DNA of 25,132 nucleotides. Source: an uncultured Candidatus Saccharibacteria bacterium (GTDB lineage Bacteria; Patescibacteriota; Minisyncoccia; UBA6257; 2-01-FULL-56-20). The notes under the pieces were generated by a model, which was given only the letters and a program-made list of their open reading frames with translations, made no database searches and had not been told where the DNA came from. Where the stretch lies: the NCBI GenBank assembly GCA_964632585.1, contig CAZWBU010000005.1, positions 1,209 to 26,340 on the forward strand, read 5' to 3'. Of this stretch, positions 13,447-19,009 are shown one piece after another; position 1 is the first letter of the stretch; every line of letters begins with the position of its first letter. The position numbers and the translations under genes were made by a program.

Positions 13447-13556
13447 GTTTAGGATTTAGAACTTAGGATTTAGGACTTGGCAATGTAAGAATAGAAGAAT
13501 AGGAGATGGGATTCTCGAGGTTGGTCTAAGTCCTATTACCTAAGTTCTAAGTCCTG
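13447..13556 (-). repeat. Paired complementary heptamer arrays with no enclosed ORF (empty copy of the 17627-18049 cassette)
   Basis: Minus strand reads TAGAACT TAGGTAA TAGGACT TAGACCA, then about 44 nt, then AGTCCTA AATCCTA AGTTCTA AATCCTA AAC ATG. Confidence 0.88.
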
Positions 13557-16998: not shown

Positions 16999-17020
16999 GC
17001 TCGGCGCCGGGCGCACGCAT

Positions 17021-17050
17021 AAGATCCCCACGCTGGGGATTTTGTGTTTT
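17021..17050 (+). terminator. Intrinsic terminator
   Basis: AAGATCCCCA-CGC-TGGGGATTTT followed by GTGTTTT. Confidence 0.65.
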
Positions 17051-17081
17051 CTTGGTTCTACGATAGAATCGTATGTGCCCT

Positions 17082-17294
17082 ATGATGCTTGCGTGGACCG
17101 AACTTGTTTTGGGAATCTGGATCTTGATATCGCCATGGCTCTTGGGTGCGAGCGCAAATTCGTTGATGCTGTGGAGTAATGTCCTTGTCGGACTCGTGCT
17201 TGTCGTTTTAAACCTGTGGATGATATTTACCCTACCCACACCTCGTGTCGAAGAAGAGGAGGTTCAAAAAACTAACGGTGGTGGGAAAAAATGA
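17082..17294 (+). CDS. SPW-repeat small membrane protein
   Basis: LGIWILISPWLLG motif and two hydrophobic helices. Start uncertain (17073, 17082 or 17085); TAGAAT at 17064. Confidence 0.72.
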   Translation: MMLAWTELVLGIWILISPWLLGASANSLMLWSNVLVGLVLVVLNLWMIFTLPTPRVEEEEVQKTNGGGKK

Positions 17295-17322
17295 TTAAAA
17301 CGTCGAGCAATTAGTTTACCGC

Positions 17323-17408
17323 GAACAGTGTGCAGTGAGCATCGTGTTGAGCATCAAGCCATGCGACCACCTTTCTGTTCACTGCTCACTGCAAGCTACT
17401 CACTTCTA
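17323..17408. repeat. Paired complementary heptamer arrays upstream of glutaredoxin
   Basis: Left CAGTGTG CAGTGAG; right TTCACTG CTCACTG CAAGCTA CTCACTT CTA. Perfect 11-bp inverted repeat TGCAGTGAGCA (17331-17341)/TGCTCACTGCA (17383-17393). Confidence 0.75.
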
Positions 17409-17413
17409 AAAAT

Positions 17414-17629
17414 ATGGCGAACGTAAAAATTTACAGCACCCCCACGTGTGTCTACTGCAAAATGGCGAAGGATTTCTTCGTGAAAAACAGCGTGCAATAT
17501 CAGGAGTTCAATGTGGCCGAAGATGATGCGGCGCGGGAGGAGATGATCCAGAAGTCGCACCAGCTCGGCGAGATCTTTGTTGGATTTGACCAAAAGGGGC
17601 TGACGAGAGCGCTCAAAATTAAGACCTAG
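17414..17629 (+). CDS. Glutaredoxin/NrdH-like protein, apparently lacking the cis-Pro segment
   Basis: YSTPTCVYC active site and VGFD. QLG is joined directly to EIFVGFD. Confidence 0.8.
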   Translation: MANVKIYSTPTCVYCKMAKDFFVKNSVQYQEFNVAEDDAAREEMIQKSHQLGEIFVGFDQKGLTRALKIKT

Positions 17630-17654
17630 AACTTAGCCAATAGGACTTAGAACG
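17627..17654 (+). repeat. Left heptamer arm of four-helix-bundle cassette
   Basis: TAGAACT TAGCCAA TAGGACT TAGAACG; the first TAG is the glutaredoxin stop. Confidence 0.88.
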
Positions 17655-17655
17655 G

Positions 17656-18027
17656 ATGAATTCGTACAAAGAGCTTATTGTTTGGCAAAAAGCATTCGAT
17701 CTGACAAAAGAGGTTTATCGGCTAACCAGTTTATTCCCTGCATCGGAGTTATATGGATTAACAAGTCAATTGCGACGTGCAGCTGTTTCTATTGTTTCAA
17801 ATATCGCCGAAGGTTTCAGTCGGAAATCGCAACGAGAAACAGTGCAGTTCTTCTCGATCGCGTTTGGATCAACTAGCGAGGTTGAAACTCAACTGTTATT
17901 AGGGAAGGAGATGGAGTTTGCTGCAGTGCATGAGTTCGTTCGAGCTGAAGATCTTTCGCTCCAAGTTCGTAAGATGCTGAATTCAATGTTGAGTAGTTCG
18001 AAGAAGAATACTATTTCTAAGTCCTAA
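17656..18027 (+). CDS. Four-helix-bundle protein (23S rRNA intervening-sequence protein family, Avd-related fold)
   Basis: YKELIVWQKA, FP.SELYGLTSQLRRAAVSI.SNIAEG and AFGS.SEVETQL motifs. Confidence 0.92.
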   Translation: MNSYKELIVWQKAFDLTKEVYRLTSLFPASELYGLTSQLRRAAVSIVSNIAEGFSRKSQRETVQFFSIAFGSTSEVETQLLLGKEMEFAAVHEFVRAEDLSLQVRKMLNSMLSSSKKNTISKS

Positions 18028-18047
18028 ATCCTAAGTTCTAATTCCTA
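18013..18047 (-). repeat. Right heptamer arm of four-helix-bundle cassette
   Basis: ATTTCTA AGTCCTA AATCCTA AGTTCTA ATTCCTA. Contains the ORF stop and ends 5 nt before the trxB ATG. Confidence 0.88.
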
Positions 18048-18052
18048 AATTC

Positions 18053-19009
18053 ATGTACGATTTAATTATTATCGGCGGCGGGCCAGGCGGCGTGTCGGCT
18101 GGGGTCTACGCCGCGAGAAAGAAAATAAAGAGCTTGCTCATTACCGATTCGTTCGGTGGGCAGTCGCTTGTTTCTGCGGACGTGCAGAACTGGATCGGTA
18201 CCAAGTCCGTTTCTGGTTATGATCTGGGCAAGATGTTCGAAGAGCACCTTCGTGCACAAGAGGATATCGAAATCGTAGGTGATGATCTCGTGACGTCCGT
18301 TAAAGAAGTTGAGGGCGGTCTTGAAATTGGAACGCAGAGCGGCAAAACCTATCAAACAAAATATCTTTTAATCTGCTCGGGGAGCCGTCGCAAGAAGCTT
18401 AATATCCCGGGCGAGAAGGAACTCGATGGGAAGGGAGTCGTGTATTGCTCTACCTGCGATGCGCCGCTCTTTAAGAATAAAGTTACGGCAGTCGTAGGTG
18501 GAGGCAACGCAGGGCTTGAGGCAGTTGTGGATCTTCTACCGTACGCTTCTAAAATATATTTACTGGAGTATGGCGAGGCACTCAAAGGTGACGCAGTAAC
18601 GCATGAGAAGATTAAGGCGAATCCGAAAGTAGAAATCATTTTCAATGCGCAGAGCCAAAAAGTGCTTGGCTCGCCCTCCACAATTTCGCCGGGCGAAACT
18701 GAGGAGGGTAAAGGATTTGTCAACGGTCTCGAATATCTCGACCGGAAAACGAACGAGGTGAAAAAACTTGATCTCGAAGGTGTTTTCGTCGAGATCGGTG
18801 CCTTGCCAAACTCGGAGTTTGTGAAGGACGTTGTGCAGCTCAACAACGTGAATGAAATTGTCTCTGATCCGAAGACGCAGAAAACCTCGCATGCGCGCAT
18901 CTGGGCAGTAGGGGACGCGACGGACGTATTGTACAAGCAGAACAACATCTCGGCAGGAGATGCGGTGAAAGCGGTACTGAATATTTACGAGGAGTTGAAT
19001 AAGGGCTAA
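18053..19009 (+). CDS. trxB: Thioredoxin-disulfide reductase
   Basis: GGGPGG, CSTCD redox motif, GGGNAG and AVGD motifs. Confidence 0.9.
   Translation: MYDLIIIGGGPGGVSAGVYAARKKIKSLLITDSFGGQSLVSADVQNWIGTKSVSGYDLGKMFEEHLRAQEDIEIVGDDLVTSVKEVEGGLEIGTQSGKTYQTKYLLICSGSRRKKLNIPGEKELDGKGVVYCSTCDAPLFKNKVTAVVGGGNAGLEAVVDLLPYASKIYLLEYGEALKGDAVTHEKIKANPKVEIIFNAQSQKVLGSPSTISPGETEEGKGFVNGLEYLDRKTNEVKKLDLEGVFVEIGALPNSEFVKDVVQLNNVNEIVSDPKTQKTSHARIWAVGDATDVLYKQNNISAGDAVKAVLNIYEELNKG
18674..18708. repeat. In-frame palindromic hairpin within trxB
   Basis: CCCTCC-A-CA-A-TTTCGC-CGG-GCGAAA-C-TG-A-GGAGGG, within the segment encoding SPSTISPGETEEG. Confidence 0.65.

Follow-up and report, generated by a model that had tools for sequence, protein, structure and literature searches.

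Between a glutaredoxin-like gene and a thioredoxin-reductase-like gene of a CPR-like bacterium, we found a gene of the four-helix-bundle family PF05635 that is closed in on both sides by complementary arrays of 7-nt units. We consider this locus, with a probability of roughly 70%, to be one copy of a widespread cassette class, in which a PF05635 gene lies within complementary arrays of ~7-nt units, in the layout of an rRNA intervening sequence (IVS), at a junction of protein-coding genes. The class of heptamer-armed PF05635 cassettes is apparently undescribed.

A PF05635 gene enclosed by heptamer arms at the grx-trxB junction

Coordinates given without a contig are those of the window, the whole stretch of 25,132 nt that was analyzed. 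It belongs to a genome (G000) of 703 kb in 61 contigs, with 52% GC and 91% completeness. The features at the junction are as follows.

17414-17629, plus strand: glutaredoxin-like gene (grx), upstream, 71 aa; PF00462, E 7.5e-14
17627-17652, plus strand: left arm, 26 nt; units TAGAACT, TAGCCAA, TAGGACT and TAGAA
17656-18027, plus strand: cargo gene, 123 aa; four-helix-bundle, 23S rRNA intervening-sequence protein family, PF05635, E 3.4e-36
18015-18050, plus strand: right arm and remaining heptamer array, TYCTAAN units; paired with the left arm over 18015-18040
18053-19009, plus strand: thioredoxin-reductase-like flavoprotein gene (trxB), downstream, 318 aa; PF07992, E 2e-34

The family assignment made in an earlier sequence-only reading of this DNA is borne out. 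The cargo scores 124.1 bits against PF05635 (cut-off, 33.8), with residues 5 to 110 covering model positions 1 to 106, i.e., the full length, and PF05635 is its only Pfam match, with no match to a Y1 (HUH) transposase. The nearest solved structure is that of XCC0516 (PDB 2GSC; E 5.3e-21), a pentamer according to the literature. Six residues, Q38, R41, S45, N49, E52, and E75, are invariant across 12 homologues. We know of no biochemical activity for any PF05635 IVS protein. The cassette contains no transposase or integrase, as had been noted before, and no reverse transcriptase. PF05635 proteins resemble Avd (PMC10053308), and the cargo might be a stray Avd accessory gene of a diversity-generating retroelement (DGR); we regard this as very improbable, since the 91%-complete genome has no reverse transcriptase (PF00078), no template/variable repeat (TR/VR) or long direct repeats lie around the gene, and its neighbors are redox housekeeping genes.

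The arms fit tightly between the flanking genes. The left arm begins exactly at the grx stop codon, as the earlier reading had it, with TAG (17627-17629) as its first three bases, and the cargo ATG (17656) follows 3 nt past its end. The cargo stop codon (18025-18027) and the last codons before it lie inside the right arm. The trxB ATG (18053) had been placed 5 nt beyond the right array; the distance is in fact 12 nt from the paired right arm and 2 nt from the end of the heptamer array (about 18050). Between 17627-17652 and 18015-18040, sequence and fold agree on two perfect helices of 10 and 12 bp, separated by a 4x4 internal loop, and a repeat search extends the arms by weaker pairing to 17616-17652 and 18015-18051 (37 nt, 78% complementary). 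Complementary termini that form a stem around the open reading frame (ORF), a trait of ORF-bearing 23S rRNA IVSs, are thus present, as are tandem heptamers adjoining the ORF, as in the Coxiella IVS. The cassette is not inserted in a 23S rRNA helix (9, 25, or 45): it lies between grx and trxB, and the 23S gene is on another contig.

When positions 17615-18060 are folded, both the minimum free energy (MFE) and the centroid structures close on the stem that had been proposed. The arm duplex has an energy of -30.7 kcal/mol, compared to -6.6 +/- 2.3 kcal/mol when the right arm is shuffled (500 shuffles; minimum, -17.3), and the stem pairs have probabilities of 0.91 to 1.0 in a 900-nt context, with the last inner pair (0.66) as the sole exception. 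The arm unit occurs 12 times in the window, with 0.86 occurrences expected, and a flank complementarity score of at least 14, as strong as that of this cassette, is reached by only 7 of 915 crude ORF calls genome-wide. The z-score of the entire 446-nt fold is weak (-1.84) because the ORF dominates it. This weak score and the fact that the arms are simple repeats would fit a complementarity that low-complexity flanks produce by chance, but the shuffle controls and the mismatched-pair controls described below rule this out, and we assign it a negligible probability. The arm-gene-arm arrangement in the window is confirmed.

The only terminator-like hairpin within 17000-18400 is at 17017-17047, and a promoter scan of the same interval found no promoter-like site. 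There is thus no sign that the cassette has a promoter of its own, and the SPW gene, grx, the cassette, and trxB probably form one transcription unit. The gene order dsbA-SPW-grx-trxB-groES is kept in most relatives. The grx gene lacks, at 17560-17570, about 8 aa of the GVPV cis-Pro loop region that are present in all relatives. In a contig of another sediment metagenome, 24 extra nt after 17565 restore these ~8 aa, and the left arm and the ORF still follow; the gap is due either to a deletion in this strain or to an assembly slip.

The junction is empty in relatives

The cassette (arms plus gene, ~410 nt) occurs at grx-trxB only in G000. None of the 20 relatives that have both genes carries a PF05635 gene between them, so the filled and empty alleles that the earlier reading had called for exist. 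The distance from the grx stop to the trxB start is 4 nt in a member of the same genus (G001), and other relatives have 2 to 30 nt or unrelated hairpins there. No target-site duplication is seen when the filled and empty sites are compared. A search of sequencing runs recovered this DNA from three sediment DNA metagenomes and from no RNA run. Low-depth contigs from these metagenomes, which are short and have a depth of 2 to 5, show no joint without the cassette.

Other sequences are found at this junction as well. Two relatives (L049 in G018 and L056 in G015) have gene-less heptamer hairpins there that begin at the grx TAG, with units TAGGGKY / TATACCC and TAGAGSC / TCTAACC, respectively. The grx-trxB spacers of G005, G020, and G015 (L052, L054, and L056) contain a duplicated 5' fragment of trxB (ATGTACGACCT...GGCGG) upstream of the real start, near a GC-rich hairpin, which may be the footprint of another insertion.

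The closest homologue of the cargo (L039, genus g17; 70% identity) has nearly identical arm units, including the mismatched second unit in the matching position. It is located between lemA and an M48 peptidase gene, and the grx-trxB junction of its genome is empty. Since similar arms are kept at the lemA/M48 junction, the gene moves together with its arms. Over the full set of loci, similarity between arms grows with protein identity, averaging 4.4 at 20 to 40% identity and 9.7 at 70% identity or more. Judged by these sequences, gene and arms have been inherited and relocated together.

Armed PF05635 genes in the genome, in relatives, and in distant phyla

G000 has four PF05635 genes, and all are flanked by complementary arrays of 7-nt units that differ from copy to copy: TAGGACT-type at the grx-trxB junction, TAGGGTW on contig C18, GYTCAAA on C3, and AATTTTC on C48. 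Among 41 genomes (G000 and 40 relatives of its order), 25 encode PF05635 proteins, with 1 to 9 copies each. We scored arms as the best local complementarity between the 130 nt upstream and the 170 nt downstream of each gene. The 32 loci of relatives have a median score of 14, and 27 of them lie above the 95th percentile of a control made of mismatched upstream/downstream pairs (n = 992; mean, 7.7; 95th percentile, 10; 99th percentile, 14). Their arms have a lag-7 autocorrelation of 0.6 to 1.0, compared to ~0.25 at other lags, and each locus has its own unit.

The same architecture is found far beyond this order. For 80 loci gathered from many phyla with a 7-sequence homologue alignment, the median arm score is 16, compared to 7.3 for the control; 61 of the 80 exceed the 95th percentile and 45 reach the 99th, with lag-7 autocorrelations mostly of 0.7 to 1.0. 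These loci cover Acidobacteriota, Planctomycetota, Bacteroidota, Firmicutes, Gammaproteobacteria, Cyanobacteria, Chloroflexota, and other CPR groups. Cultured carriers of the cassette include Adhaeretor mobilis, Rhodanobacter sp. OK091, Thiohalocapsa halophila, Collinsella aerofaciens, and Capnocytophaga cynodegmi. Of the PF05635 loci, 40 were scanned with Rfam, and none is located in rRNA. That homologues carry complementary, 7-periodic arms was a prediction of the sequence-only reading, and it holds for all four genes of G000, for 27/32 loci in relatives, and for 61/80 across phyla.

The arms are also often anchored at stop and start codons, as had been expected from this one locus. Arms could be located at 97 loci. 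At 68 of these a co-directional ORF ends at the left arm, at 67 a co-directional ORF starts within 45 nt past the right arm (median, 10 nt), and at 48 (49%) co-directional genes abut both arms.

Two variants of the layout were seen. One cassette (L030, G032:C9) is armed with units of 8 nt (TTAACGAG and its complement), which shows that the period can vary. At three other loci (L021 at 1474-2727 in G004, of the same genus; L016; and L022), the PF05635 frame lacks a stop codon and runs on through the right arm, which is translated as a hydrophobic, FYILN-rich segment, and then, without a change of frame, through the gene downstream; the resulting open frames are 417, 286, and 263 aa long.

Gene-less hairpins built from the same units

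Heptamer arrays are abundant in G000. At a low threshold, Tandem Repeats Finder (TRF) reports 292 arrays of period 7, compared to 56 and 61 for periods 5 and 8, respectively, and 148 period-7 arrays are at least 20 nt long with a score of at least 30. Among 147 arrays there are 66 distinct units. Sorting them into discrete families by single-linkage clustering was rejected, with 143 of the 147 arrays falling into one network. Inverted pairs of arrays make up 28 hairpins with loops of 7 to 118 nt. Gene calls flank 26 of them on both sides; at 18 of these sites the two genes are co-directional, and in most of the 18 the hairpin takes up nearly the whole spacer. Loops of 358 to 366 nt (~400 nt on C3) occur only where a PF05635 gene is enclosed, and the remaining apparent long loops are cross-pairs of adjacent hairpins. 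Apparent enclosures around rpsH, rplW, and rpsN and inside the 23S gene were rejected, their flank-complementarity signals being cross-pairs of neighboring short hairpins.

The arm families of the four cassettes have 12, 10, 17, and 3 gene-less sites in the genome, compared to ~0.3 for shuffled queries. Two gene-less hairpins are found in the window itself.

13447-13556, minus strand: gene-less hairpin whose units belong to the family of the cassette ("empty twin"); loop of ~44 to 49 nt, -34.5 kcal/mol
17326-17393, plus strand: short hairpin with CAGTGAG / CTCACTG units; inverted repeats and a TRF period-7 array

The first fills the spacer of two minus-strand genes. A by-eye comparison for an ORF remnant in its loop gave only an 8-nt resemblance, which we judged to be chance. 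The second separates the SPW gene from grx, within what is likely the same operon. Some heptamer families, AGCTTTT, CAGTGAG, and GCAAAGG among them, were seen only as gene-less hairpins. Since gene-less hairpins are common, the arms are not private to the cassette, which must be read together with them.

In ribosomal-protein operons of three genera (L005, i.e., G000:C11:7200-8000; L169, 7380-7900; and L192, 9120-9700), heptamer hairpins occupy successive spacers, those of rpsN-rpsH-rplF and of rplD-rplW-rplB, and each stops a few nucleotides short of the next ATG, without a Shine-Dalgarno (SD) motif. A separate repeat family in G000 consists of long palindromes, e.g., CTAGTCATGACTAG with ATAACTGG flanks (G000:C25:4444-7219 and C12:11688-12976); it lies on both sides of several genes and gives the top flank-complementarity scores.

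A stop triplet is present, on one strand or both, in about 76% of the array units, compared to 40% of random genomic heptamers; the AT-richness of the arrays inflates the former figure. Since 7 is not divisible by three, a stop triplet in the unit falls in all three frames. As a hint only, this may partly explain why 7-nt units are tolerated at gene ends.

Heptamer hairpins in the 23S rRNA gene

The 23S rRNA gene of G000 lies on C14, with its 3' part on C30. Aligned to the Rfam model, the gene has long insertions in place of three terminal loops in domain I.

Model position ~160: insertion, 79 nt instead of 8
Model position ~284: insertion, 91 nt instead of 5
Model position 583, helix 25: long insertion; helix assigned from flanking conserved sequence

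All three are gene-less hairpins of AATTTTC / GAAAATT heptamers, a unit family that they share with the C48 cassette arms and the ribosomal-protein spacers. Helix 25 is a classical IVS site. The 23S gene (G000:C14:12325-16197 and C30; L011, L006, and L012-L014) has further insertions of 145 nt and ~65 nt, as well as two group I introns (RF00028).

Array density follows gene copy number, and PF05635 is the only cargo

We counted period-7 arrays of at least 20 nt in samples of 23 to 200 kb from each of 20 related genomes, plus 11 kb from G039, with statistics on G000 and the 19 samples of at least 30 kb. Array density is 5.5 to 38.5 per 100 kb in 10 genomes with PF05635 genes and 0 to 12 in 10 genomes without them (Mann-Whitney p = 0.0015), in counts that include the arrays flanking the genes themselves and among genomes that are kin. 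Density is also correlated with PF05635 copy number (Spearman rho, 0.78; 20 sampled genomes, kin, not phylogenetically corrected). One exception is G001 of the same genus (L170-L179), with 12 arrays per 100 kb and no PF05635 gene detected; either its genes are unassembled or arrays persist without them.

The loops in the sampled relatives fall into two size groups: 10 are under 100 nt, none is between 100 and 340 nt, and eleven are of 340 to 461 nt. These eleven represent ten distinct hairpins, eight with a PF05635-like ORF and two that are cross-pairs in ribosomal-protein operons. PF05635 is thus the only cargo of such hairpins in G000 and the samples of 20 related genomes.

These distributions bear on whether the heptamer hairpins are host operon punctuation, serving in processing, termination, or coupling, with PF05635 merely a host gene in a spacer and nothing mobile. 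The gene-less hairpins are numerous, 18 of 26 lie in co-directional spacers, they recur between ribosomal-protein genes in three genera, and unrelated ones stand at grx-trxB in L049 and L056, all of which punctuation would explain. However, it would not account for PF05635 being the only enclosed gene in G000 and the samples of 20 related genomes, for gene and arms that co-vary and reappear at another junction in another genus, for the same architecture in distant phyla, or for a grx-trxB junction that is empty in 20 of 20 relatives. We therefore consider punctuation alone unlikely and favor a cassette class that is gained and lost.

RNA or DNA level

The 97 arm pairs comprise 2,589 Watson-Crick positions, 111 G-T, and 144 A-C, with no excess of G.U over A.C among the mismatches. 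These wobble counts give no sign that the stem is kept up by selection on the sense RNA. Arm complementarity would plausibly be renewed at the DNA level, by array slippage together with template switching between the inverted arms.

Arms without G.U bias are also what DNA-level repeats would show, and they could be terminal inverted repeats of a DNA transposon or MITE-like element, served by a transposase encoded elsewhere and with PF05635 as a passenger. Filled and empty alleles exist, and the gene-less copies are dispersed like MITEs. Yet the arms vary between copies, even within one genome (66 units in 147 arrays), and no conserved terminal inverted repeats are common to all copies, a difference that fits poorly with ends recognized by their sequence. 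In addition, there is no visible target-site duplication, the cassette neither contains nor adjoins a transposase gene, and the cargo is always PF05635. Such an element is, in our estimate, quite improbable, and we keep to the reading of an IVS-like PF05635 cassette.

A near-perfect duplex of ~26 bp in a transcript is a substrate of RNase III, by established biochemistry, and G000 encodes RNase III (rnc). Because the arms would form such a duplex, an RNA stem and its cleavage by RNase III are likely consequences of the arrangement. In the transcript of grx, cassette, and trxB, the arms would zip into a stem of ~26 bp and loop out the gene, so that the stop codon of grx would again adjoin the start codon of trxB. 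With the gene looped out and stop and start rejoined, the insertion would be tolerated much like an IVS in an rRNA loop. RNase III would then cut the stem, freeing the cargo RNA and separating the neighboring cistrons, while the arms would be kept complementary by a DNA-level process and not by selection on RNA wobble pairs. In the most speculative step, the protein may act on the heptamer arrays. The sequence-only reading had proposed an IVS-like cassette at an mRNA junction; its architecture, its generality, and its gain and loss stand, whereas excision from RNA, given arm mismatches without G.U bias, stays a step that we infer.

The heptamer hairpins may even form a genome-wide system that has the protein as its trans-acting factor; in it, the gene-bearing cassettes would be "autonomous" and the gene-less hairpins their derivatives or targets, with a pentamer binding about 4 to 5 heptamers to spread, maintain, or exploit the arrays. 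We offer this tentatively, as a possibility that we would not bet on. If true, it would be a partnership like that of REPINs and RAYTs built on a nonenzymatic fold, and the classical rRNA IVSs would be merely the most visible insertions.

If stem-closed cassettes are common outside rRNA across phyla, rRNA is only one of their landing sites. If gene-less hairpins scale with gene copy number, the effect of the protein on heptamer arrays becomes a tractable question, as does how an insertion of ~400 nt is made harmless by looping out of RNA. Answers would bear on the abundant intergenic heptamer repeats of cyanobacteria, Beggiatoaceae, and CPR bacteria, on operon processing in tiny genomes, and on the annotation of thousands of "four helix bundle protein" genes.

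Comparison with known systems

IVSs in 23S rRNA, like the ORFs that they carry, were already known in the early 1990s, and ORF-bearing ones also occur in Leptospira, Brucella, and Xanthomonas. To our knowledge, neither the origin of IVSs nor the function of the IVS protein is established. In Coxiella, the IVS lies in helix 45, is excised by RNase III, and carries an S23p ORF that is seemingly untranslated, with three tandem GACAGAT heptamers, whose number varies between strains, before the ATG (Warrier et al. 2016, PMC4990558). The cassette resembles ORF-bearing 23S rRNA IVSs in its PF05635 cargo, in the stem that complementary termini form around the ORF, and in a sporadic distribution that suggests gain and loss, and it shares with the Coxiella IVS the tandem heptamers adjoining the ORF. 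It differs from rRNA IVSs in lying between two protein-coding genes and in having full heptamer arrays as both arms. RNase III excision is demonstrated for the Coxiella IVS, whereas we only infer it for the cassette, and the rRNA of G000 holds gene-less hairpins instead.

Comparable intergenic heptamer repeats are the STRR of cyanobacteria. Intergenic direct repeats of the heptamer TAACTGA are described in Beggiatoaceae, Cyanobacteria, and Bacteroidetes (MacGregor 2015, PMC4679880). Like the arms, such repeats are tandem 7-nt units, often directly upstream of start codons, usually with a stop triplet and without SD motifs. In contrast to the arms, they are described with one unit and without complementary partners or a link to PF05635. 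The taxa with TAACTGA repeats are rich in the PF05635 gene family, and PMC4679880 does not connect the two; the terms "23S," "intervening," and "four helix" do not occur in it.

The cassette shares with Avd of DGRs (PMC10053308) a related four-helix-bundle fold, and Avd forms pentamers; unlike in a DGR, there is no reverse transcriptase and no TR/VR at the cassette, and heptamer arms are not a described DGR feature. In full-text searches of the literature, we found no description of PF05635 genes outside rRNA that are linked to heptamer-array hairpins. As in the REPIN-RAYT system (PMC3116915), a single type of gene is flanked by inverted copies of a repeat that is also dispersed as gene-less intergenic hairpins, here at 3 to 17 sites per arm family, and repeat abundance goes with the presence of the gene. 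In contrast to RAYTs, the cargo is a four-helix bundle with no known nuclease or transposase fold and not a Y1 transposase, and the repeats are heptamer arrays in dozens of variants, not one conserved palindrome. Compared to these systems, what is new here is the gene-less hairpin families that match each cassette and their presence in the 23S gene, together with the exclusive cargo, the correlation of copy number with array density, and the negative wobble test.
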